Positions 5,198 through 27,401 of a stretch of DNA of 64,000 nucleotides are shown in pieces. The DNA comes from a virus. The notes beneath the pieces were generated by a model. The model was not told where the DNA came from and ran no database searches. It saw nothing but the letters and a program-made list of their open reading frames with translations. Position 1 is the stretch's first letter, and each line of letters starts with the position of its first letter. The stretch lies in the UHGV virus genome UHGV-0039337, one strand, 5' to 3'. The position numbers and the translations under genes are program-made.

Positions 5198-8100
5198 ATG
5201 ATTAATATAAGTTTTATACATTGTCATGTTCATACAATTTATTCTATGCTCGACGGCTACTGTAAAATAGATGACTTAATAGAAAAAGCCAAAGAATATA
5301 ATATGTCTTCAATATGTATAACTGATCATGGTACACTTGCAGGTATTTATGAGTTTAATGATAAATGCAAAAAAGCAGGATTAAAACCTATATTAGGTAT
5401 TGAAGTATATCAAACTCATGACATATCAAAAATAATACTGCCAGTAGAAGAAAGAAAAAAGATAGCTTGGGATAAATATTTAGAAATAAACAATATAACA
5501 GATGAAAAAAGCCTAGGCAAGCTAACTAATAAGAAAAAAGCAGAACTAAGTTCAGAATATATATATGATACCAAAGGATATCATTTAATCTTAATAGCAA
5601 AAAACCAAACAGGTTGGAATAATCTCGTTAAGTTAAGTAGTAAAGCAAATGATATAGCAATGTTTAATGGTAAAGGGCATATAGATTATAATTTATTAAA
5701 GCAATATAGCGAAGGATTAATATGCACTACAGCATGTATAAGTTCTATGTTTAATCATGCATTATCTAACAATAATATGGATAAAGCTGTTAAGCATATA
5801 AAAATATTATTGGATATATTTCATGATGATTTATACATAGAGTTACAACCTTTAGAATGGAATAAGCAGGTTGAAATAAATAAAAAAGCTATTAAAATAG
5901 CTAAACAATATAATATTAAAACTATAGCAACTAGTGATGTACATTATACCAATTATGAAGATGATTATGAACACGATATATTATTATGTATAGGTACTGG
6001 CAAAACATATAACGACCCTAATAGAATGAAATACGATCATGAATATTGGTTTAGAAATGAAAACGAAATGATAGATGGTTTTAATAGAAGTAATTATACA
6101 AGTGAAGAGATGCAAGCTATTAAAACTGCTATAAATAATACAACATTATTAGCAGATACTGTAGAAGATAATATACAAGTAGGTAGCGATCATGAACTAT
6201 TACCAGAGGTAGATGTACCTGAAGGTTATACAACTAAATCATGGTTAAAGCGTCAATGCTGGACTAACTTATATAAATATCTAACAGACAATAACTTAAT
6301 GGATAAACGTTATATTTATGAGTCTAGATTAAAAGAAGAACTTGATGTAATAATAACTAAAGGTTTTGCTGGATATATGTTAATAGTTCAAGACATAATA
6401 AATATTGGTCAACAAGCTGGTTGTAGTTTTGGGCCTGGACGTGGTAGCGTTGGTGGTTGTCTTGTAGCCTTCTTGCTCGGCATAAGTAAAGGAATAGATC
6501 CTATTGAATATGGATTACTATTCTTTAGATTTTTAACTGTTTCTAGAACTGCAAATCCAGATATTGATAGCGACTGCAGTCAGGTTGATAGACAAAAACT
6601 ATTAAGAATAATAAATAATAAGTATCATAACACTAATGTTACTCAAGTAGGTACATTAACTACATTAGGAGTTAAAAATGGCGTTAAAGATGTCATGCGT
6701 GTATTGAATTATAGTTTTGCAGAATCAAATGCTGTATCTAAAAAATTAGATGAAATATATGCTGAACCAGATTTATCTTTTAAAAAGCTTGATAGTTTTG
6801 AATCTGAAGATCCAGAATTATATAAAAAATATAAAGAGTTAGAATCAGAATATCCTAACGTATTTAAGTTAGCACGTAAATTTAATGGATGTCCTAGAAA
6901 TATGGGAGTACATGCTGGAGGTGTAGGTATAACACCTACTCCAATAAATGATATATATCCTACTAGAAATATTGATGGTAAAAAAGTTACTGTATGGGAA
7001 AAAGATACAATAGAAAAAGCAGGAATCGTCAAAATAGATATGTTAGGATTAAAAACTATATCTGTAATAGAATTATGCTTAAAGTTTATAAAAAAGAATC
7101 ATGATATAGATATATCATTAAACGAACTTTATAATAATAAAGAAATACGTAATGATTCTAATGTATTTAATATGCTATCAGAAGGTAAAACTGATGGTGT
7201 ATTTCAATTTGAAAGTAACTTATTTAAAAATGCTTGTAAGAACGTTAAACCTACAGATATAAATGACTTAATAGCAATTACTGCATTTAATAGACCTGGC
7301 CCATTATCTGCCGGCTTCGATAAGAAATATGCTAATAGAAAAAATGGATTAGAACCTGTAAATTATCCTTTAGGTTGTGATGATATATTAGGTGATACAT
7401 ACGGATGTCTATTATATCAAGAACAATGTATGTTAATATCAAAAAAGGTAGCTGGCTTCGATGATAATCAGGCAGATACATATTTAAGAAAATCACTAGC
7501 CAAAAAGAAACGTGCTTTAATAGATCTTTGTAGACAGTGGTTTATATATGGAAAACCTGAACATGACGAATACGGATCACCTATAGAAGGTGGTATTAAT
7601 AGAGGATATGATGAACAAGAACTTAAAGACTTTTTCGATGAGTTAGAAGGGTACGCTAGTTACGTTTTTAATAAAAGTCATGCAGCGAGTTATAGTCTTC
7701 TAACAGTAATTAGTGCATGGTTAAAATATTATTATTCTGAAGAATTCTTTGCAGCTCTTCTTACTTATTCAGTTGATGAAAAAGCTGATTTATATAATGA
7801 TATATTAAGTAAACAATATGACATACATATAACTGTACCAGATATAAAGAACTTATCTGAAAATTATAATCCAACACAAGGTAAAATAGCATATGGAATA
7901 TCTAAAATAAAAGGAGTAGGTGCTACAGCAATATCTACTATATTAAATGCAGGACCATATGAAAGTGTAGAAGATTTTATAACTAAAGTAAATAAGTATG
8001 ATAAAGCACGTGGTAGTAAAAAAACTGTTAATAAAACAGCTATTATTGCTCTTATTAAAGCAGGAGCTTTTGACTCCTTGGGTGAAACTAATAGATTTAA

Positions 8101-8509
8101 ATTAATTAATCAAGCTTATAATGCACGTAAAGATAAAGACGAAAGACTTGATGAATCTACATGGTCAAAATCTTGTGCTCAAGCATTAGAAATAGAGGTA
8201 TTAAATACATCTATAACTTATCCATTAATATTTAATTCTGCTATGGATAAAGATATTATAACTTTAGAAAACTGTAGAATAATAAACGTTACTGAGAAAA
8301 AAGATAAAAATGGTAAACTTATGGCTTTTGTAAAAGTAAAAGTTAATGATATAGAACCAGTAGATGTTGTAGTATTTAGTAGTTTATATTTAAATAATTA
8401 TGATTTATTTGATGTTAGATATGGCGATGTTATAAATATAACAGGAGAAAAAGACGGAAAGAAATTAAAATTTAAGAAAGGAAGAAGAGAAAAGAAAGAA
8501 GATAATTAA
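5198..8509 (+). CDS. dnaE: DNA polymerase III alpha subunit, DnaE-type (copy 1), with an N-terminal PHP domain
   Basis: Carries the PHP motif HCHVHTIYSMLDG, the catalytic region GPGRGSVGGCLVAFLLGIS, FNKSHAASYSLLTV..YY, and a C-terminal OB-like tail. The length is 1103 aa. Confidence 0.85.
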   Translation: MINISFIHCHVHTIYSMLDGYCKIDDLIEKAKEYNMSSICITDHGTLAGIYEFNDKCKKAGLKPILGIEVYQTHDISKIILPVEERKKIAWDKYLEINNITDEKSLGKLTNKKKAELSSEYIYDTKGYHLILIAKNQTGWNNLVKLSSKANDIAMFNGKGHIDYNLLKQYSEGLICTTACISSMFNHALSNNNMDKAVKHIKILLDIFHDDLYIELQPLEWNKQVEINKKAIKIAKQYNIKTIATSDVHYTNYEDDYEHDILLCIGTGKTYNDPNRMKYDHEYWFRNENEMIDGFNRSNYTSEEMQAIKTAINNTTLLADTVEDNIQVGSDHELLPEVDVPEGYTTKSWLKRQCWTNLYKYLTDNNLMDKRYIYESRLKEELDVIITKGFAGYMLIVQDIINIGQQAGCSFGPGRGSVGGCLVAFLLGISKGIDPIEYGLLFFRFLTVSRTANPDIDSDCSQVDRQKLLRIINNKYHNTNVTQVGTLTTLGVKNGVKDVMRVLNYSFAESNAVSKKLDEIYAEPDLSFKKLDSFESEDPELYKKYKELESEYPNVFKLARKFNGCPRNMGVHAGGVGITPTPINDIYPTRNIDGKKVTVWEKDTIEKAGIVKIDMLGLKTISVIELCLKFIKKNHDIDISLNELYNNKEIRNDSNVFNMLSEGKTDGVFQFESNLFKNACKNVKPTDINDLIAITAFNRPGPLSAGFDKKYANRKNGLEPVNYPLGCDDILGDTYGCLLYQEQCMLISKKVAGFDDNQADTYLRKSLAKKKRALIDLCRQWFIYGKPEHDEYGSPIEGGINRGYDEQELKDFFDELEGYASYVFNKSHAASYSLLTVISAWLKYYYSEEFFAALLTYSVDEKADLYNDILSKQYDIHITVPDIKNLSENYNPTQGKIAYGISKIKGVGATAISTILNAGPYESVEDFITKVNKYDKARGSKKTVNKTAIIALIKAGAFDSLGETNRFKLINQAYNARKDKDERLDESTWSKSCAQALEIEVLNTSITYPLIFNSAMDKDIITLENCRIINVTEKKDKNGKLMAFVKVKVNDIEPVDVVVFSSLYLNNYDLFDVRYGDVINITGEKDGKKLKFKKGRREKKEDN

Positions 8510-8887: not shown

Positions 8888-8946
8888 GGTTTTTTACCAC
8901 CTTTTTTAGTGCCTTTCTTTCCGTCTTTTTTCTTTCCGCAAGCCAT
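8881..8946 (-). CDS. Tiny lysine-rich peptide (21 aa), speculative
   Basis: A GGTGGTG RBS is followed 6 nt later by ATG. The ORF is MACGKKKDGKKGTKKGGKKPC, and its stop overlaps the next start codon. Confidence 0.2.
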   Translation of the reverse strand: MACGKKKDGKKGTKKGGKKPC

Positions 8947-9573
8947 TTATATCACCACCAATTTAGATATCTTTTCTTAATGGTCTACAAGGAATAGGCT
9001 ATGCCGACTATTCCCTATAGACAAACTGTACAGTTATTTATTGAGGTATCCTCGCTAACTCGAGGATACTATTCTATGGCATCTGCCGTTTCTTTTTACA
9101 GTCGGTAATGTGCCATCACAGTTTGAAAATAACTTAAAAGCTACCAAGTTTCTGGACTCAAACCATTACCTACTTTTCTTTGTATAGTGAGAAAAAGCTT
9201 AAAAACTCACATATATATCACTTTTAAAAAATATGTATTTCAAAAAAGTTGCCCGTGATATCATAATTCTAATGAGTTGAGATACATTTTGCTCTCTTAA
9301 GTATAGTTTAAAAATATCTACCACAATTCAATACGAATGAAAGGAGGGAGCCACCGATTGGCTCCCTAATAAATATGGAGGGAGATATTATAAATCAACT
9401 GCAATTAAACTTAATTGCTTCCTAGGTACAGTTACTGTTGTAACTAATTTACTAGGCTCATAAGGTCGTTGTAACCTCATTGATAATAAAATTAGAAAGA
9501 GAAAATATAAGAGCTTTTTGCTCTCTACTAACTATTACTTAATAATATCTGTCTAATAGATTGTTTTGTAGAT

Positions 9574-12500
9574 TTATTTATATTTAGTCCAAAAACTTTG
9601 ACTAGTTATATTAACATCGTCTTTACAGAATTTAGTTACTTTATAAGTTGTTCCTCCATTTTTAACATAGTCTCTCCACAAAGTTTCACTATGAGCCATA
9701 TGCTTATAACAATATGTAACTGAAGCTGATACTCCTTTGCCAGAACCCCAAGATACTACGTATACGTCCATACGTCTATTACCATAATATACACTAGCTG
9801 GACAACAAATATCAAAATCAAATCCTGCATTACCAGTATCAGTTACAGTAAATATACAACTAGGATTTGCTGTTTGTCTACCTTTAAAGTATGGAATATA
9901 TACTTTAGTTCCATATGGAAGGTTATGAGAAGCTACCGTATTACATCTATTACTATGTAATCGATTACCTAAAGCATCGTTATATCCGCCTTCTCCTTCT
10001 TTGTATTGAGTACACTTAGATCCTTTAAGAGCCATTATGTATTTTACTCCATCTATTTCGCCTGCAGTTTCATCTATACCTGAACCGCCATTTTTAGAAG
10101 ATTTATCTGCGTTTATTAATGATTGTGGTCTTAGGAAATAACTATGTCCTGCATGTTTTCCTGTTACATAATAGTCTGCTTTTTCATATTTAATTCCATC
10201 ACGAGGACTTGAACTATGAGCTATCATTCCGTCTCCCATATAGATAATAGCATGTGTAGCTTTACATTCACTACCATTTGATAGATTATTTTTATCTATT
10301 AAACCTGGGCCATATGTCATTAATACATCTCCTGGTAATGCTTTAGCCATACCTTCTTTATCAGCGAACCATATCTTACCGCCTTTTTTAACTACTTCTT
10401 GTGCTAAAGTATTTCCCCCTGGATTTCCTTGTCCTGTGCTTCCGCTATAGAAATCAGAAAGGCCTGCTGCTTTATAACAACATGATACAAATGATGTACA
10501 GTCATAACCTATTTTACCATCAGAACATTTTTGTGGTTTATCATGGTCTACAGTTCTTGGGCTATTAGAATATTTAGCTTTTCCATCTTTGTATTCTTGT
10601 ACTATAGTTTTAGCCATTTCCGTAATTTTCTTTCTTATTGTTGCTCCGTTACCGTTTACTGAATCATCTATATCAGAGTTACCGTTATTATTACCATTGC
10701 CATTACCAGCACTATTAGCAGTTAATCCTATATTGCCTTTAATTCCATTATCGTATTCATAACCAGTTCTATTAAGATTAAAGTTTTCAAAGTAGAAATC
10801 TAATGAACTGTATTTATTTATTTGGACACTATCATCTTTTTCTCTTGTGTCTATCCATTCACCAGAAGCTATAATATCATATGTCTTTTTATCGATGCCC
10901 ATTTGTGTAGACTTTTCAGCTGAAGCTACGTTATCTTCTCCTGGGTCACCTTTTTGATTTTTATACTTAGCTGCTATTTTTTCTGTAGGATAGGCTTTAA
11001 TATCTGGACGTTGTAAATCAACAGATTCTTCTGTCCAATCCATCATAAATAAATAATCGCTAGGAAGTAGTTTATCTAATTCTTTAGCTCGTTCTTCTTT
11101 ATCAGTATATTTTTTCTTTATTTCTTTTTCTTTTAATTTTTTGTCAGCTGTTTGCCATTCATCTATCAAACTCTTTGGTTTTTTCTTTTCTTTTTTATTA
11201 GTATTAATATAATTATATCTTGAACTTCTTTTTTCTACATCATTTAAATTTTTGAAATCATCTAATGACATATAAGACATTTGCATATCATCAAGTATAG
11301 CTGAACCGTTAAATCCTGTTTCATCAAGTATATCATATATTGCACCTACGATAGGTTCATATCTAGTACATGTTAAACATTGATCCATGGTAACAGTTGC
11401 ACCGTCATGTACTCTATCGTCTCTTAAACATCTTATACATTTATATTTTCCCATTACACTTTGTCCACCATAATATACACAGTTTATATTAACACGTGAA
11501 GCCATACGTCCTAGATATCTAGTTACTGTTGATAATATGTTTTCTATACGTACTAATCTTTGTTCAGTCATCTTAGATTGATTAATAGCCATATCATTAA
11601 GCATTGCAAAATTCTTAGCCATAGGATGTGCTATCGGACATCCAGGATGATTACAACTATATACTCTATTTTCTATTTCATCTATTAAAACTTTAGGATA
11701 ATGATTCTCTAAGTCAGTTATCTTATCGTCATATGGATAAGGGTCCATATAGTTTACTGGTTTACCACTAGATTTTTTAGTTTTCTTATCTAGTAATTTA
11801 TAGTCATATGAGTATGATTTATCAAGTGCATCTTCAAGAGATATAGAAGCATCTTCTATTGTTGTTAATGGTATACTATTTTTGCTTAAAGAATCATAAG
11901 TACTAGTAGTATATTTAGGAGGTATAACTAAGTCTGGATATATAGGATCAACCTTACAGTCCATATTCTTATATAGTACACTTAATTCATCTACTGGTTT
12001 AACACAGTGATCTACAGAACCAGGACCTGTTTCTACTACTTTATAACGTATCATATTATCAGTAAAAGTATAAATCTTTTCAGTTAATACTTCTAAACGA
12101 GAATCTGAAGTTAATCCTACAGTTTTAACTTCTACCAAATCTTTATCATATGGTTCAAATGAGTTAGTATATATGTCTATATTAGCTGCTGTAGAATATG
12201 TCATTATTTCTTCATATTCTTTTTGTGTTATAATAGTTTTTATATCTGGTTGTGTAGCGTTAGCTTCAGTAGGTTTTGCTACTTTATATATCATTACACC
12301 ACCATTATCTATAGATGTAGTACCTAATCCAGATAATGTTATTCCTGATGTACTGCTACTATCTCCTATTGTATTATCTATGTTATTCTTATATATTTTT
12401 TCTATTGTTATATCATCTATATATAAATCAAACTTATTTTTGCTTCCTATGAATAGTTTGTAATTACTATCTTCTAATCCAGTAAATATACATCCTATAC

Positions 12501-15500
12501 GTGTCCATATAGTATTTGATATTCCTGATATATCTACTTCTTTTTCGTATTTAACTTTATTTGATTTATCTAATAGTTTTATTGATATATTTGTCTGTTT
12601 TAGTTTGTCTGGATCTAGTGGGCCACTATTTTCATCTTTTTGTGTGACTTGTTTTATATAAAATAATACTCTTAAATAACATTTGCTATCTTTTGCGTCA
12701 AAGTTTTGTGATATACCTGATATCTTATTGCTCGCATTTTTTATACGTGCAAATCCAGTTTTTCTATAAGGCCAATGTCCTTTAGTTCCCCATTCTGGGT
12801 TTGTTATACGTGAGAATTCTATAGAACCCATTTTTGACCACATTGATATATCGTCTTCTTCGAAATCAGCATTTTTTAATGATACTAAGTCAAGATTTCC
12901 TGACGAATTATTATTTTCTTCTTCGCCGTTATCCGGTTTTATTACTTCATCTCCAGGATCTTTTCCATTAGATACTTTAAAATCAGAGTTATCAAATGTA
13001 ACAGCATATGCTTTAACGTATCCAGATGTATCGTTTGTTTTTATTTTATATAAGCCTAGTTTTACATCTGTTCCTATAATAACTACTTTAGTTTGCTCAC
13101 TAAGGTCTTTATTTTGTTTTGCTAATTTAGTGTCTTTATAATAATCTGTATTTTCAAATTTAATCCAACATGTTTGTCCAACATAACTTTGAGATACTTC
13201 TCCATGATTTTTACCTATTACTACCACGTCTTCTTTTAATACATAACCAGTTTTCTTATTAAATTTACATTTATAATATGTGTTCTTTTCTCCGGTTATT
13301 TCTAATTCATCACCAACTGCTAATTTTGCTACTTTGCCTGCTTTTTCTTTTGCATCCTTTTTCATTTCTGTTCCTGATGTATTACCTACATAACAATACT
13401 GCTTATCGTTTTTAGTTTTCGGAGCTCTCATAGCAAATGTAGATGCATGATTTTCTTCTTTTGGTTCATCATGATGGTCACTATCTCCAACCATAAGTAT
13501 TTCAGTTACCAATGTAATATTAGTTGTAGATTCTATTATGCTTTTTATATTATTATAATATGTTATATAATTATTTAATGTTATTCCATCAGAGTTAACG
13601 ATAGAATCTTTTAAATATCCCTCTGAATCCATTAAGTCTTTAGATATATCTATAAAATAAAATCCATTTTTTATACAGTATGATTTTAAATTATTATTGT
13701 ATTTATCAAGAGCTTCATTAAAAGCATCTGCACTTTTATAATCTTGCTCTGAATATCTTTTTCCACAATGAGGTAATTTAGCTACATATACAGGAACGTT
13801 ATTATATAGCTCTTTTATTTTATTTAAAAATCTTACTGTATCATTAGATTCTAAGTTTTCTTTTAATCTGTTATATCCTAAATGTATATATACAAATGAG
13901 ACGTCTTTATTCATTCCTTCTAGTCTGTCTATATTCTTAGTAGGATTGTAATAATAAGAAGAATCTTTAGATATTGCAGCTTCACATATACTATATGTTT
14001 CACCTGTACTGCTTACAAAGTAACTTCCTTCTAATTCATTACTATCTCCTACTATTAGATCTCTCATTTCATATTCCCAGTTATCTCCTATAAACAATCC
14101 AGGATATTGAGTTGGATATATTTCTTCGGTATCGTTATCATCATCTATAGTAGCAATAGCATTAACAGCTCTTTTCCTTGCGGCAAAAGTTTTGACTGCT
14201 GCAGATTTTGCATCACTGTTAGCACTTATGTGACTATCAGTATTATTTTTCTTACCATTTGGAGATACATAATTTAATGGATTTACTGGTGTACCTTTTG
14301 TACCTGAAAAATCTTTATGTACTTCAAAATGTAAGTGAGGTCCGGTACCTATACCAGAGTTACCTACTTCTGCTATCTTATCGCCTTGTTTAACTGATTG
14401 CCCTACTGTTACTATATATTTATTAAGATGTTGATATAATGTTCCTATTCCGTTTCCGTGATCTATTACTACGTAATTACCACGTCCACCATTATATCCT
14501 GTTTTTGCTACAACTACTTTACCAGAATCAGCTGCTATAACTTTTGTACCTTTAGATGCTGGTATATCTAAGCCTCTATGAAATGTAGAAGCTCCAGGAG
14601 TTGGCGCTTTTCTTGGTCCAAAATTTGAAGATATTCTAGTTGATCCAGGTAATGGCCATATAAAATTACCTGAGCCTTTCTCATTTCCGTCACTGTTATT
14701 GTCGTTATTATTGTTGCTATTGTCATTATTACCATTGCCATTGTTTCCAGGTACTATTACTCCATTAGGAAGTGGAGCTGTTTCTATAAAGTTATTAGTA
14801 TTTTGGTTCGTTAATAGATTATTAGGTATATAAGTCGATGTAACTTTACCATACTTTTTATTTAACCAACTTACTTGTTTATCTACTTCTTTACAAAATG
14901 CTATCCATTTATCCTTGTCTAAATACAAGAATGGTGACGGCGCTCTATTAAGATCAAATTCACGCCATAATTGTTTACTAGTAAAGCCTTCATCATATAA
15001 TGCTTTAGCGCATTGTTCTATTAATTTTTTCTCTGTTTTAGGATAATCAACATTACCTGTTTTTTCTACTAAATCATATTCATCATAGAAGAATTCTCCT
15101 ATACTTAATGTGTATTTAGGATGTTGATTATTAAATAGATTGGCGTCTATATATGTATGCGTATTGTTATCAACACTCGCAAAACATATTTTCCCTTTAT
15201 CTACTTTATCCCATGTTATAACTTTTTTATCTGTAGTATTAGATACTGTTTTATTTGTATTTTTTGTGTTTACAAATGCAGCTCTAGTCAAAGCAAACAT
15301 AGTTGTTTCGACTTGTGGGAAAGGATTCTTTTTATATCCTCCTCCAGGTTCTACATAATCTAATGGATCTACATACTTACCATCTATCAGCATTCCAAAA
15401 TGTAAATGCATTAAAGGATTTGACACTGTAACACCTGTTGTACCTATACATTGACCTTTTGTTACAGTGTCTCCTTCTTTTACCTTTATCTCATCAAGTG

Positions 15501-17415
15501 AACCATATACGGTTTGTACTTTATTTCCGTGATCTATACGTACGTAGCCTTTTAATTTAGTATCCGTTAATACTTTTTTTACTACACCATCTGCGTAACA
15601 GAATGCTCCGCTCCCTGTATAATTTGCTATATCAATACCTGGATGGTAATTATATCCGAGCGTATCCGTTCTATATCCAAAGTATGATTGTATATATGTT
15701 TGCATAGGTGCAGGCCAACCAAATGGCTCACTTTGTTGTTGCACTGTTATTTCATCGTTTAAATATGTGCCGTAATCATTTGCATATGCTGATATTTGTT
15801 CTTGATCATAAGATCTATCAGCAAATGTGCTAAATGTTTTCGCTCTTAATCGTTTAGAACCTGATGAGTTAGAAAATTTATCGTACCATTTTTGTGCGTA
15901 TTTTCCTCTAATTCCTGTACCATCCGCACCATCTTCCGCTCTTTCAAAAACATGGCCAAATATTTTAGCTGCTTGTTTAGGATCGGTTAACTTCTTCCAT
16001 GAATCTAGCGTCATATTATATCTTGATTTTCTTAAATGATCAATATATGAATCTCCGCTCCATTCTATCCACATATATTGTATTTGAATATCTGGATCCG
16101 ACCATTCTTTACCAGCTTTTTTGGCGTAATTTTTTAAGGCATTTGCTCTATCGCCTAATAGTTGAAATAATCCTGTAGCTCCTAATCTATTTACATTTTT
16201 TGGATCGAAACTAGATTCTGTTTCTGCATTACCTACTATACCACAAGCTGCAGCTACACTACATCCTTGTGAGATACAATAATTATATATTTTGGTAGGT
16301 ATATCATTTCCGTCTATCTTGTTTATCCCTTCTGATTCTTTTCCTTCCTCCGGTGTTGATCCATCAGTAGAGTTATTGCCTCCATTATTAACTGTAACAT
16401 TTTCTCCGTTTATGATTACAGTTTGATTTAATGGATCTTTAGGTTTTACTTCAAAATCTGATAACGATGAACCTACTATATTACCACCTGTAGTTTGTCC
16501 ACTTGCAGGTTTTTTATTAAAATCTATCTTAGTATCTTTATCCACTTTATAATGAAAGTTTCTATCCCACCCTAGACTTTCAAAATACTTAGCCATACTG
16601 TCTGCAGTACAGTCATGGTAAGGTGGATACATATGCAAGGTTATACCTTTTATCTTATGCATATCTACCCAGTTGTCACTTACATTAGCATTAGGTAATG
16701 ATTCTTGTACAGTAGTAGTGTTATTATAAATTACTGTTATGGAATTGCCTGAACCACTTCCATAATTATTCCCTGAATTACCTTCAGATGGTGCATTGTT
16801 TCCTGAACCATCACCTGTATTTCCATTATCACCAGGTTCTGCTCCGTCTTCTGAACCTAGCTTTTTAAATTTGCTAGAATCTAAATTAAATTTTTTATCG
16901 CCTATTTTAAAACCACAAATAAAACCATCTGATGCATGTGATCTAGGTCTTATTCCTGAAGAGAATACTCCTCTAGGGTCATTTATTACTACATCGTTTC
17001 CGCTCATGGCTACTAATACTACATAGTGTCCTGCTGGTCCATAGCATGTTCTTAAACATCTTTCATGCCAGCTTGTACCAGGATCTTTTCGTCCATCTAA
17101 TACTATTGGATATCCTTGTTTAGCTAATTCACAGCATTTATCAAAACTAGTTATCTTTTCTACTGGTACATTAAATTGTTTACTGATATAAGGGAATAAT
17201 GTATTTTTATCTGCGCCACCACTTGGATTCCATCCATGGCCTTTACATTTTTGACATAGCATATTAGGCGCTACATCTTTACCTAATGCTTTTAGTACCA
17301 TAGATATGGCAGTAGTTGCGCAACCTGCATTCATAATATCCTCATCTATATTTTTATAAGCAACTTGTGACCAATAAGGGAAATCGTTGACTGTTTGTAC
17401 TGGTAGCTCTTGCAT
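9574..17415 (-). CDS. Giant (2613 aa) multidomain virion-associated peptidoglycan hydrolase or ejection protein
   Basis: From the N-terminus: a C39-like papain-fold peptidase (GCATTAISMVLKALGK...HYVVL), Gly/Asn-rich linkers, a lytic transglycosylase SLT-like domain (ACGIVGNAETESSFDPK...GATGLFQL), two M23 peptidase domains (YHPGIDIA...HLHFGM and FHRGLDIPASKGTKV...GPHLHFEVH), a possible SGNH-like segment (LIVGDSN), and an NlpC/P60-like Cys-His domain (DCTSFVSCCYKAAG ... HAIIY). Confidence 0.8.
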   Translation of the reverse strand: MQELPVQTVNDFPYWSQVAYKNIDEDIMNAGCATTAISMVLKALGKDVAPNMLCQKCKGHGWNPSGGADKNTLFPYISKQFNVPVEKITSFDKCCELAKQGYPIVLDGRKDPGTSWHERCLRTCYGPAGHYVVLVAMSGNDVVINDPRGVFSSGIRPRSHASDGFICGFKIGDKKFNLDSSKFKKLGSEDGAEPGDNGNTGDGSGNNAPSEGNSGNNYGSGSGNSITVIYNNTTTVQESLPNANVSDNWVDMHKIKGITLHMYPPYHDCTADSMAKYFESLGWDRNFHYKVDKDTKIDFNKKPASGQTTGGNIVGSSLSDFEVKPKDPLNQTVIINGENVTVNNGGNNSTDGSTPEEGKESEGINKIDGNDIPTKIYNYCISQGCSVAAACGIVGNAETESSFDPKNVNRLGATGLFQLLGDRANALKNYAKKAGKEWSDPDIQIQYMWIEWSGDSYIDHLRKSRYNMTLDSWKKLTDPKQAAKIFGHVFERAEDGADGTGIRGKYAQKWYDKFSNSSGSKRLRAKTFSTFADRSYDQEQISAYANDYGTYLNDEITVQQQSEPFGWPAPMQTYIQSYFGYRTDTLGYNYHPGIDIANYTGSGAFCYADGVVKKVLTDTKLKGYVRIDHGNKVQTVYGSLDEIKVKEGDTVTKGQCIGTTGVTVSNPLMHLHFGMLIDGKYVDPLDYVEPGGGYKKNPFPQVETTMFALTRAAFVNTKNTNKTVSNTTDKKVITWDKVDKGKICFASVDNNTHTYIDANLFNNQHPKYTLSIGEFFYDEYDLVEKTGNVDYPKTEKKLIEQCAKALYDEGFTSKQLWREFDLNRAPSPFLYLDKDKWIAFCKEVDKQVSWLNKKYGKVTSTYIPNNLLTNQNTNNFIETAPLPNGVIVPGNNGNGNNDNSNNNNDNNSDGNEKGSGNFIWPLPGSTRISSNFGPRKAPTPGASTFHRGLDIPASKGTKVIAADSGKVVVAKTGYNGGRGNYVVIDHGNGIGTLYQHLNKYIVTVGQSVKQGDKIAEVGNSGIGTGPHLHFEVHKDFSGTKGTPVNPLNYVSPNGKKNNTDSHISANSDAKSAAVKTFAARKRAVNAIATIDDDNDTEEIYPTQYPGLFIGDNWEYEMRDLIVGDSNELEGSYFVSSTGETYSICEAAISKDSSYYYNPTKNIDRLEGMNKDVSFVYIHLGYNRLKENLESNDTVRFLNKIKELYNNVPVYVAKLPHCGKRYSEQDYKSADAFNEALDKYNNNLKSYCIKNGFYFIDISKDLMDSEGYLKDSIVNSDGITLNNYITYYNNIKSIIESTTNITLVTEILMVGDSDHHDEPKEENHASTFAMRAPKTKNDKQYCYVGNTSGTEMKKDAKEKAGKVAKLAVGDELEITGEKNTYYKCKFNKKTGYVLKEDVVVIGKNHGEVSQSYVGQTCWIKFENTDYYKDTKLAKQNKDLSEQTKVVIIGTDVKLGLYKIKTNDTSGYVKAYAVTFDNSDFKVSNGKDPGDEVIKPDNGEEENNNSSGNLDLVSLKNADFEEDDISMWSKMGSIEFSRITNPEWGTKGHWPYRKTGFARIKNASNKISGISQNFDAKDSKCYLRVLFYIKQVTQKDENSGPLDPDKLKQTNISIKLLDKSNKVKYEKEVDISGISNTIWTRIGCIFTGLEDSNYKLFIGSKNKFDLYIDDITIEKIYKNNIDNTIGDSSSTSGITLSGLGTTSIDNGGVMIYKVAKPTEANATQPDIKTIITQKEYEEIMTYSTAANIDIYTNSFEPYDKDLVEVKTVGLTSDSRLEVLTEKIYTFTDNMIRYKVVETGPGSVDHCVKPVDELSVLYKNMDCKVDPIYPDLVIPPKYTTSTYDSLSKNSIPLTTIEDASISLEDALDKSYSYDYKLLDKKTKKSSGKPVNYMDPYPYDDKITDLENHYPKVLIDEIENRVYSCNHPGCPIAHPMAKNFAMLNDMAINQSKMTEQRLVRIENILSTVTRYLGRMASRVNINCVYYGGQSVMGKYKCIRCLRDDRVHDGATVTMDQCLTCTRYEPIVGAIYDILDETGFNGSAILDDMQMSYMSLDDFKNLNDVEKRSSRYNYINTNKKEKKKPKSLIDEWQTADKKLKEKEIKKKYTDKEERAKELDKLLPSDYLFMMDWTEESVDLQRPDIKAYPTEKIAAKYKNQKGDPGEDNVASAEKSTQMGIDKKTYDIIASGEWIDTREKDDSVQINKYSSLDFYFENFNLNRTGYEYDNGIKGNIGLTANSAGNGNGNNNGNSDIDDSVNGNGATIRKKITEMAKTIVQEYKDGKAKYSNSPRTVDHDKPQKCSDGKIGYDCTSFVSCCYKAAGLSDFYSGSTGQGNPGGNTLAQEVVKKGGKIWFADKEGMAKALPGDVLMTYGPGLIDKNNLSNGSECKATHAIIYMGDGMIAHSSSPRDGIKYEKADYYVTGKHAGHSYFLRPQSLINADKSSKNGGSGIDETAGEIDGVKYIMALKGSKCTQYKEGEGGYNDALGNRLHSNRCNTVASHNLPYGTKVYIPYFKGRQTANPSCIFTVTDTGNAGFDFDICCPASVYYGNRRMDVYVVSWGSGKGVSASVTYCYKHMAHSETLWRDYVKNGGTTYKVTKFCKDDVNITSQSFWTKYK

Positions 17416-17831
17416 TATTTATCCCTCTTATCTGTTGAAGATGCAGTAATTGTATTATCTAATATTTGTTGTCTTATTTTAGCGGCAGCTTGAGAGTCAT
17501 GTATGCCTAAATTAGCATAATCTATATCCCAAGTGTCTTTATCTTCTTCATACCATTGCTTTCTATCTAACAATGTTTTATTCATATATTCTCTTTCTGC
17601 TTCACGTAATGAAGTTATATAATCAAAGCCTTCCATATATTGTTGCGCTTTAGCGTAACCTTCTTCTCTTTTCTTTTCCCATTTTCTATCATGAGCATAA
17701 TTAAAATCTATTATAGCTCCATCTGTTGTGTCGATAAAGTACTCATCGCCATAAGCTAATAACTTATAGTAAGGAATATCGCATCTGATGCATTCATTAG
17801 GTTCTGTTATTCTACATAATATTAATGACAA
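17415..17831 (-). CDS. Hypothetical protein
   Basis: 138-aa ORF. Its stop overlaps the ATG of the giant gene (TAATG). Confidence 0.45.
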   Translation of the reverse strand: MSLILCRITEPNECIRCDIPYYKLLAYGDEYFIDTTDGAIIDFNYAHDRKWEKKREEGYAKAQQYMEGFDYITSLREAEREYMNKTLLDRKQWYEEDKDTWDIDYANLGIHDSQAAAKIRQQILDNTITASSTDKRDK

Positions 17832-17896
17832 AAAATCGCCTCCATTTCATAGTAATCGTATATAATATATATTACTGAAATGAAGACGATTATATC

Positions 17897-20800
17897 TTAT
17901 CTGGATATTTTAAGTAATTTTTTAGAGATAGTTGGTTTAGGTGCTCTATTAAATAGACTACGTAATTTTCTATGACCTCTATTATCCATAGGGATTTCTA
18001 TACGGTCAGGTTTTCTATTATGTTTCTTTTCTGTATTGCTTACTTGTTTTATATGAGTAGCTGATTTAAATAAATTTTTATCTACTGTATTTTTAATTCC
18101 GTCTACTACGTTTGAAGCTATTTGAGTTAATACATCTTGGTTATCACTCATGGCACGTAATCCTTCTTCACTAAATTTACCTTCCATTGATTGTGCGGCG
18201 TGTAATTTAGTAGCCATTAGAGATAGTGTAGCTTCTTGAGTAGTACCTTCATAATATAGGAAATATACAGTTATATCTTTAGTTTGTGACAATCTCCATG
18301 ATCTTCTTGACGCTTGTCTCATAGTATTTAAATTATATCCTAACTGATAAAATACTATAGTAGTAAAATCTAATAGATTTAATCCAGTTTCTATTAAAGA
18401 TGGATTACATATTAACACATCGTATTTGTCTTTAATTAGTTTATTAATAAATTCTTCACGCTTTTCTGCTTTAACAGATGCTTTTAACTCAGCACTTTTA
18501 TATCCATATGAATTTATTAGTAATCTTATATGGTCTCCTAGATTTGTAGTACCTACATCATTATAATATACTAATACCTTTTCTCCTGCTAATACTTTAG
18601 TATTTATTATATCTAATAGTGCTAAGTCTTTATTGGTTGTAAATTCTTCTATTTCTGGTGCAGCAAATAATAGATTACCATCTTCAGTTGCTTCATCTTC
18701 TATGCAATGTGGAGCATCAGGAATAGTAAGCATACGTCTACAATATTGTCTAAGATATTTTCTATTATTTATATCATTATCTGTAGCCATACGTTTTATG
18801 AATTGTTCATAACTATTATAATATTTCAATGTTGTTTCATCCATTTCTATACTATATGGTATTTCTGTATAATTAGGTAGTCCTTCTGTCATATCTTCAA
18901 GAGACACAAAGACTGTATTGTTTAATAGAAATTTAGTAAATACTAATGATGATATACCAGGAAGTAATTTAGAGCTTCTTTTTTTTACTGTTCTTCCATC
19001 TATTATGGAAGTAGTACTATTAACTCCATATATTCTATTAAATTCAGCTTCATCTTCGTAGTTAAATCCTTCTCTTTTCATAGATTGAGGAAGCAATCTA
19101 TATAATAAATAATACATACTATTTACGAATCCGTTCATTAATGTACCTGTCATGGTAATGGTTTTCTTGCATGATTGAGCTAAAATATGAAAGGCATGTC
19201 CTTGTTCTGTTTTACCTTTATAGCTTTGAGCTTCATCAAAAATTCCATAATCAAACACATTATTCATACGTTTTTTAATATAACTAGCTATAGGATACTT
19301 TTTAGTACCTATATATTTATTATTTACTGTGCCGTTTCTAATTAAACTATTATGTTGATCACTTAAGTTTGCAAATAATTCAGAGTCTTTACGCGTCATC
19401 TTAATTCCAGAATTTAAGTAATGATTCATTAATATTTCTATTGTGTCTTTATGAATCCATCCTGATTTACCTAATTTAACCCATTGTAAATTATCATCAT
19501 CTCTATTTACTGCAGTCCATAATTTATTATTACATTTTTTCTTTCTATACGCTTCTTCTTTAAAGTCATATACTTTAATAGTGTTAGTACATATATCATT
19601 AATAGAGTTTTCTTTAGTAAAATCAGTTAGATCTAATGGTACTATTCTTTTTACTTTACGTGATGCACCTGGGTAAATTGGTACAGTAACATACTTAGTA
19701 AGTACTTGTCCACATTCAGGGCATACAAATACATTATTTGCTTTTACCATGTTGCCATGTTCATTTTTGTAGTATCCAATCTTTTTAAACAATACAGCTG
19801 GTCTATTTCCATATCCTATTTTGGCACTTTCTTTAGATAATATTACAAAAGAATTTTCTATTTTATATGGATCAGTTAATATGTCTTTAATAGCTAATAA
19901 TTCTTCTAAGTTGTGTATTATATACGATCTACTATTAGGAACAAAACGTGCTACTTCATTTTTCCAGTTATTAACTAAGTGTGACGGACACATTACAAGA
20001 GTATTAAATCCTTTATTCTTATTAGCATTATGAACATAACAAGCTGCGGAAGCCATAAGAGTTTTACCACTACCCATTTCTCCGACTAAGAACGTATTAC
20101 TATTAACGTTCATATTATTCACTATAGCTTGTATTGCTGAACGTTGTGCTTCATATAAATTAACACCAGCATTATAATATGCATAATCATCTATGTTATA
20201 TAAATAATTATCATAAGTATCTTCACCCGGTATAAATTTAGGTCTAAAAGATGTTTGAATCTTTTTAGCTAATCCTTCTCCAAATAATTGCAAATAATTA
20301 TCTATTCCTGTACAGTTATCTAGTATTGTAGAATGTTCATTCGATCCCTTGATATTAATAACTTCACTATTAAGCCCATCACGTACTATTTCTTCTAATA
20401 TATGTCGTGATCCAATTAATACATAACATAGTAAAGGTTGTTTTCCCTCTAATGCATAATATTCAGTATCTAATTGATTAAATCTCAATTGTTCTTCTAA
20501 TTTCTGTTTTATATATGGTATCCATTCTCTAAGTATAGGTATAGATGAATATTTAACAAGACGTTTGTATAACTCATCTTCTATATTAGATTCGGAATTA
20601 GTAAATATATATGATGTATAATTTTCATGGTTATCTTTAGTAACATAACTATCATTTGCATATGCTATCATGTGCACATAATCAGAATTAGGCATTTTCT
20701 TTGTTTTAATTACATATTTACTACTTGATATTATATAATATCTATTGTTTGCATATATAGTATGTGTTTTATTGTTATTAAGCATAGGTTTAATCATATT

Positions 20801-20935
20801 AATAGTAGAATTATACCCAATCATAGATATGAATATTGCATGTCCATAATTATTTATGATTATTGTATCGGCTTTACAGCCACTAAAACCTCCAATAGAT
20901 ATATTAATATAATCGTTCATTCTTTCTGCTGTCAT
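17897..20935 (-). CDS. SNF2-like superfamily 2 helicase/ATPase with a large N-terminal extension
   Basis: Motif I is GEMGSGKTLMASAA and motif II is GIFDEAQSYKG (DEAQ). Motif III is TMTGTLMNG, and motif VI is QASRRSWRLSQTK. An internal CPECGQVL segment is zinc-ribbon-like. Confidence 0.6.
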   Translation of the reverse strand: MTAERMNDYINISIGGFSGCKADTIIINNYGHAIFISMIGYNSTINMIKPMLNNNKTHTIYANNRYYIISSSKYVIKTKKMPNSDYVHMIAYANDSYVTKDNHENYTSYIFTNSESNIEDELYKRLVKYSSIPILREWIPYIKQKLEEQLRFNQLDTEYYALEGKQPLLCYVLIGSRHILEEIVRDGLNSEVINIKGSNEHSTILDNCTGIDNYLQLFGEGLAKKIQTSFRPKFIPGEDTYDNYLYNIDDYAYYNAGVNLYEAQRSAIQAIVNNMNVNSNTFLVGEMGSGKTLMASAACYVHNANKNKGFNTLVMCPSHLVNNWKNEVARFVPNSRSYIIHNLEELLAIKDILTDPYKIENSFVILSKESAKIGYGNRPAVLFKKIGYYKNEHGNMVKANNVFVCPECGQVLTKYVTVPIYPGASRKVKRIVPLDLTDFTKENSINDICTNTIKVYDFKEEAYRKKKCNNKLWTAVNRDDDNLQWVKLGKSGWIHKDTIEILMNHYLNSGIKMTRKDSELFANLSDQHNSLIRNGTVNNKYIGTKKYPIASYIKKRMNNVFDYGIFDEAQSYKGKTEQGHAFHILAQSCKKTITMTGTLMNGFVNSMYYLLYRLLPQSMKREGFNYEDEAEFNRIYGVNSTTSIIDGRTVKKRSSKLLPGISSLVFTKFLLNNTVFVSLEDMTEGLPNYTEIPYSIEMDETTLKYYNSYEQFIKRMATDNDINNRKYLRQYCRRMLTIPDAPHCIEDEATEDGNLLFAAPEIEEFTTNKDLALLDIINTKVLAGEKVLVYYNDVGTTNLGDHIRLLINSYGYKSAELKASVKAEKREEFINKLIKDKYDVLICNPSLIETGLNLLDFTTIVFYQLGYNLNTMRQASRRSWRLSQTKDITVYFLYYEGTTQEATLSLMATKLHAAQSMEGKFSEEGLRAMSDNQDVLTQIASNVVDGIKNTVDKNLFKSATHIKQVSNTEKKHNRKPDRIEIPMDNRGHRKLRSLFNRAPKPTISKKLLKISR

Positions 20936-20951: not shown

Positions 20952-22415
20952 TTATGTTAAATTATAAAATGTTCCATCAGCACCTAATGCTGTTATCTGT
21001 ACTTTATTTCTTATTGTATCTGTAGATTCTGTAATTATTCTTCCATTTTGTGTTGATTGTTCGGTAACCCTATCTGTTTCTTTAATAGTCATACCTTTTA
21101 TTACGTGGCATATTTCACCACCTTCTTCTACTATACCATCAAGTGAACCTGATGATAAAATAAGTCCTATTTGTCCTATATTAAAAGGAAGTAAGGGACT
21201 CTTGTCTTCTTCTTCTATATGTTCATTTACTGATTTGTAAAATTCATCATATAATCCATCATTTAGTATAGCATCATCTAGTTCTTGTTTATCTAGTATA
21301 CTACCTCTGAATATTTTAATTTCTTCTTCTGGTAAATTAATAGTATATGATTCAGTTAAATAGTTTAATAAATCATCATATTTTATTCTAGATAATCTAT
21401 TAAATTCATCGCTATAAGATGGATTTGATGATTTAATACCTATTATAGTTACATATTTAAGTGCATGTCGGTTTTTATTCATATCATCATCAAATTGTGG
21501 ATCGGTACATTTAAATATTTGAATGTTCTTGAGATTCTTAGCTAAGAATAATTTAAAACTTGGAGATATATCATAAAATGGTAAATTAAGAATGAATATA
21601 CCGCCTAATTTTAAATAACGCATACTATTAGTAATTTGTATATCTTCATTAGTAACTGCTAATCTGCCATCAATCTTTTTAGTGGTATTTATTGTTAATC
21701 TAGGATTAACATATACTATATCGAATACATTGTTACTAATAATAGAGCCTTTAATAGATCCTAAAGCTACTCTATCCATATTATCTTTAGCTTTATCGGA
21801 GCCATAAGTCTCTTCACTTAATCCATAAGTCTTAACTGTTATATTATTATTTCTTTCTAGTTTATATTTTAAAAAGTATTCGTCTTCTCCTTCTCCACAT
21901 TGTATAGAGAATATATTTAATGATTTATTAGTTTTTATGTTGTCTGTTATTTCTGTTATAAAATCTGGATGCATTTTATATATATTTGTATTATCTTCTC
22001 TTATTTCTTTTGCTGCATATGATAAATTATAGCTACATAAATTATAACATTCATTAATTGCATTATTTATAGTATTTACACATGTATCATTAAATGCTTC
22101 TTTAATAGTTTGTATAGTTTCGCATTCCATAACTGTATTTAAAAAAGACTCTATCGTATTTTTATGTGATTGTATTCTCTCAAATACTGTATAGTCATCA
22201 TCAATAATACACAATGTATAATTAAATAGTCTTATACATTCTGTAGCATGTTTATATATAATAGAGCGTGATTTATTTATATCTTCTTTATCTGCTAAAC
22301 TAATTGTAATGTATGATCTAAGAGTATTAAGTTTAATTACTAACTCTTGTGATGGTCTGTAAAATGAAGTTGTTATATATATCACTCCTTTTTCTAATAA
22401 TAAAGGAGCGTACAT
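20952..22415 (-). CDS. Hypothetical protein with degenerate amino-methyltransferase-like motifs
   Basis: IFSIQCGEGEDEYFL is motif I-like. About 60 aa later, DIVYVNPRL resembles the D-hh-x-NPPY motif IV but carries NPRL. Any catalytic role is uncertain. Confidence 0.4.
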   Translation of the reverse strand: MYAPLLLEKGVIYITTSFYRPSQELVIKLNTLRSYITISLADKEDINKSRSIIYKHATECIRLFNYTLCIIDDDYTVFERIQSHKNTIESFLNTVMECETIQTIKEAFNDTCVNTINNAINECYNLCSYNLSYAAKEIREDNTNIYKMHPDFITEITDNIKTNKSLNIFSIQCGEGEDEYFLKYKLERNNNITVKTYGLSEETYGSDKAKDNMDRVALGSIKGSIISNNVFDIVYVNPRLTINTTKKIDGRLAVTNEDIQITNSMRYLKLGGIFILNLPFYDISPSFKLFLAKNLKNIQIFKCTDPQFDDDMNKNRHALKYVTIIGIKSSNPSYSDEFNRLSRIKYDDLLNYLTESYTINLPEEEIKIFRGSILDKQELDDAILNDGLYDEFYKSVNEHIEEEDKSPLLPFNIGQIGLILSSGSLDGIVEEGGEICHVIKGMTIKETDRVTEQSTQNGRIITESTDTIRNKVQITALGADGTFYNLT

Positions 22416-25400: not shown

Positions 25401-25577
25401 CATATTACTTAAAGATCCGTGATCTGTTATAGCTATGGATTTCATATTAAGTTTTTTAGCTTTAGCAATTATATCTTTATTTGTAGCGATGGAATCTCCT
25501 ACCGATCCTTTTGTAGTATGCAAATGAGTTATGCAATAATTATTATAATAAGAAGTCATCGTTATCATCTTCTTCAT
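22421..25577 (-). CDS. dnaE: DNA polymerase III alpha DnaE-type (copy 2); the reading frame needs a +1 shift at CCC-TGA-C (plus 24326-24332)
   Basis: The N-terminal ORF (25577-24327) has PHP motif HLHTTKGSVGDS and GPGRGSVCGSIVAYLL, ending ...HRKGTIP-stop. The +1 frame continues directly as DIDIDVPSDYRD..., matching copy 1 (NPDIDSD), with FNKSHAVAYALTCYETAYYKIYYP downstream. The merged length of about 1046 aa is normal for DnaE. Confidence 0.65.
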
Positions 25578-26549: not shown

Positions 26550-27401
26550 CAATTTGTTATGTATAGGCTCTTTATCCTATACTCTCCTACTTTCGTAGAA
26601 GTATCGGACTATATCATTAACTCTCATATAGAGAGCAGAGCGGGGCGCTCGTGTCGGTTTTATTGTTTACCTTACTCAACCGTTAGTCTCTGAACCTTCC
26701 GTATACTTTATAGGCTTCTACGGCTTGGCTGCTGATTAGCATATCTTTCGACTTAGCCTTCCAGCAATTCACCCCGTTTAAAGACTCCAAATTTATTTTG
26801 CTTTATTATATTTTCCTAAAATGTCATGTAATTTGGAATGCTTTGATCTTGATAATATAATTAAATTAGTAGGATCATTATTTATTTTATTTTCATCTAT
26901 ATGATGTACATCATAATTTGGATTTAAATACCATTTGCCATCTATTAATACTGCACAAGATTCAGTAAGTAAATACTGTTCTGCAATTAGCCTATGCTCT
27001 CTAATTCTTCCGAATTTATTTGCAAAAGGATGATCGGGAACATAAACATATATGTAATCATTATACAGTATTTTATTTTGAGTAAAACTAGCATTCAATG
27101 GACCTTTTAATCCATATTGATGATTTCCTTCTCCTTTCATATAATTACTTTTATTGATAATATTACACTCTTCTGAACAAGTTATCATATCTGGATGTTT
27201 TAGTCTTTTAAGTCTTGAAGGTTTAACATAAAATTTTGTGCCGCATATACAACATGAAACATTTGGTTTTTTATTCCATTTATTATACATGTCAGCACAC
27301 GCATGACTACAAACATTTTTTCTATGCTTTTTTATATTATCTGTTTCGTATTCTTCATTACAATAATCGCAATGTCTTAACAATTAAGCGACATCTCCCT
27401 T
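26550..27401 (-). mobile_element. Group I intron (852 nt) in dut with an HNH homing endonuclease gene
   Basis: Splits dUTPase motif III (GTIDS | KYRGEI). Exon 1 ends in U and the intron ends in G. The GC-rich 3' core contains canonical R (GGUUCAGAGACUAAC) and S (AAUGAUAUAGUCCGA) elements forming P7, GACUA paired with UAGUC. Confidence 0.7.
26793..27383 (-). CDS. Intron-encoded HNH homing endonuclease
   Basis: Carries DVHHIDENKINNDPTNLIILSRSKHSKLH (HNH) plus N-terminal Cys-rich zinc fingers. It is in frame with dut exon 1, separated only by TAA, and the ORF caller used a TTG start. Confidence 0.6.
   Translation of the reverse strand: MLRHCDYCNEEYETDNIKKHRKNVCSHACADMYNKWNKKPNVSCCICGTKFYVKPSRLKRLKHPDMITCSEECNIINKSNYMKGEGNHQYGLKGPLNASFTQNKILYNDYIYVYVPDHPFANKFGRIREHRLIAEQYLLTESCAVLIDGKWYLNPNYDVHHIDENKINNDPTNLIILSRSKHSKLHDILGKYNKAK

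Follow-up and report, generated by a model that had tools for sequence, protein, structure and literature searches.

A 2613-residue multidomain peptidoglycan hydrolase predicted in uncultured large phages, a candidate virion-carried entry lysin

The virus genome UHGV-0039337 contains, within the 64,000-nucleotide stretch analysed here (hereafter the window), a single gene whose predicted product strings several cell-wall hydrolase domains along 2613 amino acids (aa), and it raises the question of where, and at what moment of infection, a phage would use such a protein. A preliminary description, made from the sequence alone, had proposed a virion-borne tape-measure or ejection protein that drills through a thick Gram-positive wall. 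In our analysis the giant protein may well be a virion-carried entry lysin or ejection protein of a clade of large phages (130-280 kb) with swappable lytic cassettes, a reading to which we attach moderate confidence; the tape-measure option was abandoned.

The giant gene is real and not an assembly artefact. As first described, it is a single open reading frame (ORF) at 9574-17415, uninterrupted on the minus strand from its ATG start. The coding strand has 41% A and 28% T, so that a stop would be expected about every 11 codons, and with the gene's own base composition the probability of 2613 stop-free codons is about 1e-104. The same protein, identical, was found on three independently assembled contigs, the longest of 271,414 bp; a 97%-identical form has 2622 aa, and 52 further full-length-type homologues (1870-2810 aa) bring the set to 53, all of them metagenomic. 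No signal peptide and no transmembrane segment were detected in the protein, its highest 19-residue hydropathy being 1.26. It is laid out as at least 12 globular domains strung on linkers, and the Gly/Asn-rich linkers that had been noticed at the outset were found at six Gly/Asn/Ser-rich stretches (aa 184-236, 332-365, 878-926, 1035-1061, 1674-1708, and 2222-2262). The 5' half of the gene (14001-18000, with the C39, lysozyme and M23 cassettes) has a G+C (GC) content of 33-34% versus 25-31% elsewhere in the window, which could reflect either the Gly-rich linkers or recently acquired cassettes.

Domains were called by Pfam scans of the whole protein and of ten sub-segments, with bit scores compared to the family cut-offs (Table 1). 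At the N-terminus, Peptidase_C39_2 was matched with E=5.8e-12 (46.8 bits, cut-off 24) and the Cys/His dyad is present, which agrees with the C39-like cysteine peptidase initially proposed. Given that Amidase_2 or GH25 occupies the equal position in relatives, the comparison suggests that this peptidase targets the cell wall. The following domain had been taken for an SLT-type lytic transglycosylase. It does belong to the SLT clan, but Phage_lysozyme2 fits it better (E=2e-31, 109 bits versus a cut-off of 28.2), the classical SLT model being barely at threshold (21.7 versus 21.3 bits). A catalytic-Glu motif, NAETES, is located at aa 395-401, and the region matches the N-domain of phi29 gp13 in PDB (E=6e-6). 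Peptidase_M23 was found in two stretches (E=2e-51, 172 bits, cut-off 28.7), and both copies keep the complete set of zinc ligands in their HxxxD and HxH motifs, in line with the two LytM-type metallopeptidases of the preliminary description.

The remaining assignments needed revision. For the possible SGNH esterase, a homologous segment is indeed present, but its GDSL-type match (aa ~1146-1271) stayed below the Pfam cut-off (26 versus 32.9 bits), and in the giant protein and its closest relatives GDS reads GDN (Ser to Asn) and DxxH reads DGIT (His to Thr), so that the catalytic Ser and His are both replaced. Most relatives retain GDS and DxxH, and two of them (P0002 and P0003) contain an extra, intact SGNH copy that has no counterpart in the giant protein. 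This domain is a true homologue of the fold, but probably an inactive enzyme. The NlpC/P60 (CHAP-like) domain is probable: the giant protein's own Pfam match (aa ~2303-2414) lies under the cut-off (20.2 versus 23 bits), but a family profile of the region retrieved only NlpC/P60 proteins as top matches in PDB (3h41, E=0.005), in an alignment anchored on the YDC[TS]S and His motifs, and Tn916-type hydrolases (9ubf, 4hpe) were matched as well. Moreover, Cys2306, His2388 and His2400 are invariant across the family, and relatives of about 1000 aa match NlpC/P60 with 1e-8 to 1e-11. An SH3_3 match at aa 1354-1397, right at the cut-off (27.6 versus 27 bits), was absent from the preliminary description. 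At the very C-terminus, the Pfam 3D domain (PF06725) was matched by four of eight aligned C-termini (best E=5e-4) and not by the giant protein's own copy, which does contain the DTGxxxFDFD signature; a profile of this region gave no match among PDB sequences, and a 3D-like domain is possible. Hence the initial count of at least five cell-wall hydrolase domains would stand in altered form, as five predicted intact lytic domains (four confident, and NlpC/P60 probable) alongside a dead esterase-like domain, the SH3b region and possibly a 3D-like domain.

Table 1. Positions of the giant gene, its predicted domains and conserved segments, and its neighbouring features in the window
Feature	Position	Strand	Residues and basis
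Giant multi-lysin gene, predicted modular peptidoglycan hydrolase	9574..17415	minus	ATG start, 2613 aa, 291 kDa
Peptidase_C39_2 cysteine peptidase	16975..17385	minus	aa 11-147; Pfam, Cys32/His130
Phage_lysozyme2 (lysozyme-like, SLT clan)	15874..16296	minus	aa 374-514; Pfam, match to phi29 gp13 N-domain
Peptidase_M23 copy 1	15346..15693	minus	aa ~575-690; H591/D595/H670/H672
Peptidase_M23 copy 2	14278..14583	minus	aa 945-1046; H946/D950/H1027/H1029
SGNH/GDSL-like domain, catalytically degenerate	13534..14100	minus	aa 1106-1294; homology to relatives' intact domains
SH3b-type wall-binding region	12976..13398	minus	aa ~1340-1480; SH3_3 Pfam, second similar repeat seen by eye
NlpC/P60-like cysteine peptidase, probable	10156..10548	minus	aa ~2290-2420; Cys2306/His2388/His2400
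Possible 3D-like (DPBB) domain	9577..10038	minus	aa ~2460-2613; motif HNLPYGTK..TVTDTGNAGFDFD
D2 conserved segment	16381..16740	minus	aa 226-345; 57-100% identity across family
D5 conserved segment	14761..15213	minus	aa ~735-885; 60-100% identity, always after M23 copy 1
D9 conserved domain	12346..12888	minus	aa ~1510-1690
D10, most conserved family region	10741..12318	minus	aa 1700-2225; 58-99% identity
Cys4 core, family-defining	11221..11778	minus	aa ~1880-2065; ~190 aa, inside D10
138-aa ORF, conserved upstream partner	17415..17831	minus	stop overlaps ATG of giant gene (TAATG)
SNF2-family helicase, conserved upstream neighbour	17897..20935	minus	1012 aa
DUF6094 methyltransferase-like protein, conserved upstream neighbour	20952..22415	minus	487 aa
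Two terminator-like hairpins just past the stop of the giant gene	9345..9525	minus	

About 900 aa of conserved sequence without domain assignment (D2, D5, D9 and D10) had escaped the preliminary description. Judged by sequence identity, these non-catalytic segments are the best-conserved parts of the family, and the catalytic regions are less conserved (25-40% identity in SGNH, 34-40% from NlpC/P60 to the C-terminus). The most characteristic portion is the Cys4 core, in which a long helix is combined with four invariant Cys (INCVYYGG..IRCL..DQCLxCTRYEP); the only confident long helix of its AlphaFold2 model comprises about 45 residues. The ten sub-segment scans against Pfam gave nothing for D2, D5, D9, D10 or the C-terminus; profiles of D5, the Cys4 core and D9, run against the sequences of PDB, gave no match; and the core found no match in Pfam, PHROG, PDB sequences, PDB folds or BFVD. 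The motif at the start of D9, NxDFE..W, may be akin to carbohydrate-binding modules. Joined together, D2 and D5 align co-linearly with nearly the whole Amidase_2 domain of relatives' N-termini (hhalign, P ~0.02), with the zinc ligands replaced (RHGD to REFD, CP to SP). As a tentative lead, D2 and D5 may be a degenerate amidase/PGRP-like fold split by nested insertion of the lysozyme-M23 module.

A HMMER search of 1.84 billion representatives with D10 returned 207 proteins, most of them with only the ~190-aa Cys4 core in common. Many of these have 700-1400 aa and combine SLT, Phage_lysozyme2, VgrG3_C, glucosaminidase or Amidase_2 with NlpC/P60 and M23. At related loci the gene spans from about 500 to 2800 aa and is at times split into adjacent ORFs, and stand-alone Cys4-core proteins exist. 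The lytic portions are exchanged or lost: the N-terminal C39_2 is swapped for Amidase_2 or GH25 in other members, Phage_lysozyme2 is absent from about ten, M23 copy 2 is an insertion that many relatives lack, and the SGNH domain is variable and duplicated in some. The Cys4 core was located on 43 IMG/VR contigs, mostly of 130-265 kb, and members of the multi-lysin cluster come back repeatedly on contigs of ~266 kb and of ~277-281 kb, a recurrence that points to complete genomes. The core marks a family of multi-lysins of 500-2800 aa found almost only on viral contigs of 130-280 kb.

Searches of 50,697 phage records by megablast and tblastn revealed no full-length relative and no Cys4-core match, only individual lytic domains, and a word-index protein search with the Cys4-core profile yielded only metagenomic fragments and no cultured host. 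In GTDB the core was present on only four contigs, two of which are phage-sized and binned as "Bacilli bacterium" and "Gemella sp.", and the GenBank matches of the neighbouring genes are labelled "Bacteriophage sp., human fecal samples". The carriers are uncultured jumbo or near-jumbo phages, mainly from gut or faecal samples, and their host is probably a low-GC Gram-positive bacterium. The thick Gram-positive wall that had been put forward as the target is plausible in view of Phage_holin_1 and Amidase_3-SH3_3 in the nearby lysis cassette, the SH3b region, the Bacilli and Gemella bins and the 28% GC.

As a virion-carried entry lysin or ejection protein, the giant protein would be made in the cytoplasm without export signal, and in the particle its scaffold (D2, D5, and D10 with the long helix and the Cys4 core) would serve for docking or oligomerisation, with the flexible Gly/Asn/Ser linkers joining exchangeable lytic and wall-binding cassettes. 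At infection, glycan strands would be cut by the lysozyme-like domain, perhaps also by the 3D-like domain, and stem peptides and cross-bridges by the two M23, the NlpC/P60 and the C39-like domains, while SH3b would keep the protein on the wall and a path would be opened for the tail or the DNA. More speculatively, the beads-on-a-string design could let the domains thread a narrow channel one by one. Since the protein has no signal peptide or hydrophobic segment, it could reach the wall only from outside, borne by a particle, or after holin action, and a conserved scaffold with exchangeable enzymes is the pattern expected of a structural anchor with adaptive lytic cassettes. The intact motifs in C39_2, the lysozyme-like domain, both M23 copies and NlpC/P60 are consistent with the active domains that a virion lysin would carry. 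In cultured phages, tblastn matches over the lysozyme and M23 regions fell in genes annotated as tail tip lysozyme, tail-associated peptidase and tape measure, and the M23 region matched the ejection protein gp28 of cyanophage A4 (PDB 9k2v, E=1.5e-9). In one distant relative (L035), the genes that come directly after the multi-lysin gene match PHROGs of tail and virion-structural type over nearly their full length.

Several observations weigh against a place in the virion. We infer the presence of the protein in the particle, the role of its scaffold and the timing of its action by analogy and exclusion. Known virion lysins mostly have their genes among those for the tail or the head; the giant gene is situated instead at the end of a long leftward replication block, a placement conserved across the clade. 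Pfam and PHROG revealed no virion-anchoring domain of a known type, such as a gp27-like hub or MuF, and the tail-like neighbours at L035 have no homologues in the other loci. The fold of the scaffold gave no help either: AlphaFold2 applied to aa 1700-2250 with 14 family sequences reached a predicted local distance difference test (pLDDT) score of 39, with no fold obtained; with 40 diverse sequences the Cys4 core reached 66, its Cys4 part being poor; and Foldseek comparison of that model with PDB and BFVD gave only E>2. Finally, the methyltransferase-like and SNF2 proteins encoded upstream, which might have tied the locus to injected proteins, have no detectable similarity to P1 DarB or to annotated phage records.

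The genomic setting was then considered as a whole. The annotatable genes of the window (27-31% GC) almost all concern replication or nucleotide metabolism: two DnaE-type polymerases, RecJ, a primase, several helicases, ribonucleotide reductases, a ligase, a UvsX/RecA-like recombinase, topoisomerase II, thymidylate synthase, guanylate kinase, a Holliday-junction resolvase, and several homing endonucleases. Neither capsid nor tail genes were recognised in the 64 kb or within 10 kb past each end, and the check proposed at the outset, for tail genes next to the giant gene beyond the window, was negative over that distance. The giant gene is the last of the leftward block and convergent with the second DnaE gene. 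In 44 of the 48 related loci (core identity down to 38%), the same strand carries the SNF2 helicase upstream, and the DUF6094-like gene lies ahead of it in nearly all. Downstream neighbours vary between related loci and include RtcB, Ant, NrdD and TerL; at L033, TerL is encoded 6 kb downstream of the relative of the giant gene.

Comparison with known systems showed partial likeness in each case. Phi29 gp13 (tail-knob morphogenesis protein 1, PDB 3csq) has the same order of lysozyme-like domain, linker and M23 as aa 374-700 of the giant protein, and it is a virion lysin of a phage with a Gram-positive host. However, gp13 comprises 365 aa in two domains, and its gene belongs to the late structural operon, whereas the equivalent module here is part of a 2613-aa chain in a replication block. 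CwlP/YomI of SP-beta (252 kDa), the largest characterised virion lysin, is likewise giant, comes from a phage of Bacillota and combines a lysozyme/SLT-type domain with M23; it differs in having two lytic domains and in being listed as probably tail-located, whereas the giant protein has 291 kDa, at least five domains predicted intact and no tape-measure features (PMC5380687). Cyanophage A4 gp28 (PDB 9k2v; lytic transglycosylase plus M23) and T7 gp16 are packaged in the virion and, like the giant protein, are large soluble lytic proteins. Such capsid-internal ejection proteins have glycosidase as well as M23 activity, with which they break down peptidoglycan as the phage enters, a role proposed for gp28 (PMC12002296). 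Unlike the giant protein, gp28 and gp16 possess assembly domains built as helical bundles, and their genes accompany structural genes; no similarity outside M23 was found. PhiKZ gp181 (246 kDa, a needle-like puncturing device; PMC5380687) is a giant structural lysin and likewise comes from a jumbo phage, but it has a single glycosidase domain, acts on a Gram-negative host and showed no sequence relationship by tblastn. The virion lysins of staphylococcal phages (phi11 Gp44 endopeptidase plus SGNH, Gp49, and HydH5; PMC5380687) combine peptidase, lysozyme and SGNH cassettes as the giant protein does, and staphylococcal phage genes for tail tip lysozyme and tail-associated peptidase were matched by tblastn over its lysozyme and M23 regions; in contrast to the giant gene, they encode at most two lytic domains in 60-100 kDa and belong to the tail module.

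Among the alternatives, the most serious is an accessory lysis enzyme, which would stay in the cytoplasm and reach the wall after holin action, or be released at lysis against neighbouring cells or wall debris; we consider it unlikely. The lack of a signal peptide or transmembrane segment, which the giant protein shares with canonical holin-dependent endolysins, and the location of the gene outside any structural module would agree with such a role. Furthermore, a 2026 gut-phage survey describes multicatalytic "endolysins" with up to four domains, including C39_2-C39_2-Phage_lysozyme2-NlpC/P60, and proteins combining these three families are called endolysins there (PMC13284279). Against it, a full cassette of a holin and three lysins already lies a few kilobases away and does not adjoin the giant gene, 291 kDa is far beyond the endolysin size range, and the ~900 aa of conserved non-catalytic scaffold have no obvious use in a soluble enzyme. 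In addition, the lysozyme-M23 module matches tail and ejection lysins and not genes of lysis cassettes. Endolysins are expected next to a holin and with a wall-binding domain beside one or two catalytic ones, an arrangement from which the giant gene departs. Taken together, the separate complete lysis cassette, the size and the big conserved scaffold make an endolysin role a poor fit. In a near-identical genome of 269,929 bp, the cassette is found 4-6 kb beyond the start of the window, with GH25, glucosaminidase and Amidase_3-SH3_3 arranged around Phage_holin_1 (L054, 4475-7248), an unusually rich set besides the giant lysin; another relative has a cassette of a holin and Amidase_2.

A bolder form of the entry hypothesis, also doubtful at present, is that the methyltransferase-like gene, the SNF2 helicase, the small ORF and the multi-lysin make up an invasion cassette whose products would enter the particle together and be injected along with the DNA, as a polyvalent protein split into several genes, with the Cys4 core as a new virion-targeting or oligomerising module. 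Polyvalent proteins, multidomain chains of very large size, are proposed to enter the cell together with the DNA; lysozyme and peptidase domains are common in them, and a methyltransferase-SNF2 dyad often occurs (Iyer et al., 2017; PMC5512222). The giant protein resembles them as a huge multidomain chain, and a methyltransferase-like gene and an SNF2 gene lie upstream of it, and the conserved placement beside this pair could point to an injected protein set. Nevertheless, polyvalent proteins join unrelated activities, whereas the assignable catalytic domains of the giant protein would all target the cell wall, and the methyltransferase-like and SNF2 proteins are separate genes here. The likeness of the upstream pair to the DarB-type dyad is one of domain class only; their only matches are unannotated metagenomic records, and the idea of DarB homologues found no support in the sequences. 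Gene order is broadly conserved in the clade anyway. If the proposal were true, the Cys4 core would let a phage load open-ended wall-degrading cassettes.

It is improbable that the giant protein is a polyprotein precursor from which separate lysins for entry or lysis would be released by cleavage in the linkers, whether through its own C39-like domain or through a protease of the phage. C39 peptidases classically cleave after Gly-Gly and the linkers are Gly-rich, some relatives encode the equivalent region as adjacent ORFs, and stand-alone core proteins are known; processing by embedded peptidases is also a theme of polyvalent proteins (PMC5512222). Against this, most members lack C39_2 and carry Amidase_2 or GH25 at precisely its place, which argues for the N-terminal cassette being a wall hydrolase and not a processing protease. 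Processing would in any case be compatible with a role in entry or in lysis, and so excludes neither.

Comparably improbable is an intracellular or early role tied to the replication block, such as wall remodelling, superinfection exclusion, or the function of a VirB1/PrgK-type hydrolase in a conjugative or plasmid-like element. The conjugation hydrolase PrgK combines LytM, SLT and CHAP domains. PrgK and the NlpC/P60 proteins of Tn916 Orf14 type (PDB 9ubf, 4hpe) use the same lytic folds to open a channel in the Gram-positive wall, and the NlpC/P60 profile also matches Tn916-type conjugation hydrolases, but these proteins are membrane-anchored and belong to type IV secretion clusters, neither of which was found here. 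The position after the SNF2 helicase within the replication region is conserved, and distant Cys4-core relatives lie beside ParA/ParB (L035, 3518-5335, within a 138-kb contig of IMG/VR) or beside a Rep3 initiator (L004, 1483-2643, within an 8.6-kb contig), which hints at plasmid-like members or phage-plasmids in the wider group. On the other side, the wall cannot be reached from inside an intact cell without an export signal, no conjugation genes were seen, the Cys4 core is absent from 72,556 plasmid records, and the presence of terminase, holin and lysis genes shows that the elements are phages.

A tail tape-measure protein with lytic domains in the style of T5 Pb2 or of SP-beta CwlP/YomI, which serves as the tape measure of that phage, can be dismissed as highly improbable and was rejected: the large size and the matches to PHROG tape-measure families (phrog_10030, 4070, 9570 and 19487) would speak for it, as would the existence of other tape measures with SLT and M23, but those matches are confined to the M23 and lysozyme domains, the neighbours are the wrong ones (SNF2 helicase, DUF6094, DnaE and RecJ; genes for a tail chaperone, tube, distal tail or hub were not recognised within the 64 kb or 10 kb past its ends), there is no hydrophobic segment, at least 12 linked globular domains replace a long helical rod (longest confident helix ~45 residues), and the about five-fold spread of lengths in related genomes (~500-2800 aa) is unfit for a length ruler. 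Examples with SLT and M23 are listed in a 2017 review (PMC5380687), in which characterised virion lysins range from 37 to 252 kDa, most are single-domain, and only five have two lytic domains.

The enzyme folds of the giant protein are ordinary; what is new is the scale, the family that swaps cassettes around a Cys4 core, its restriction to one uncultured clade of large phages, and the placement after SNF2. Nothing like this Cys4-core multi-lysin family was found in our literature search or in the available portion of the gut-phage survey (PMC13284279). If it is carried in the virion, whether as an entry lysin or with an injected set of proteins, the giant protein would be the largest virion lysin known (291 versus a reported maximum of 252 kDa) and also the most multicatalytic. 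The family constitutes a natural record of lytic-cassette swapping on a fixed scaffold that is useful for lysin engineering, and it would also offer several ready-made catalytic domains against low-GC Gram-positive bacteria of the gut. The Cys4 core is a clean marker of an uncultured jumbo-phage clade from mainly gut and faecal samples, and its structure is worth solving.

Further features of the locus were recorded. Between the giant gene and a 101-aa ORF there are about 690 nucleotides (8888-9573) with no ORF longer than 41 aa and with a strong GC-rich hairpin at 9345-9367; an Rfam scan of this spacer gave no match, and its length is about 750 nucleotides at the related locus L001 and only 144 at L002. 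Two DnaE-type Pol III alpha paralogues flank the giant gene, at 5198-8509 on the plus strand and at 22421-25577 on the minus strand; they are ~35% identical in their N-terminal parts and 24-27% in their C-terminal parts, and both are present in about half of the related loci. The upstream paralogue is split into ORFs of 416 and 630 aa, 13 bp apart. An HNH endonuclease ORF lies between the two halves in L001 (1-3883), and in L002 (1921-5055) the polymerase is intact with 1044 aa; either an intron or homing endonuclease may have left the split as its footprint, or the polymerase may be genuinely split.

Other genes of the region are interrupted in a similar manner. A LAGLIDADG ORF (61078-61941) splits GyrB pieces (60357-63111), an HNH/NUMOD1 ORF (51803-52333) splits ribonucleotide-reductase pieces (49703-52984), further HNH ORFs are found at 26793-27383 and 39874-40710, and a LAGLIDADG ORF also breaks up the SNF2 helicase of L001. 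Past the end of the window (L053, 1-9750), genes were found for ClpP, a ClpB-like AAA protein, PhoH-PIN, a microbial PARG-type ADP-ribose glycohydrolase and an antiterminator Q-like protein.

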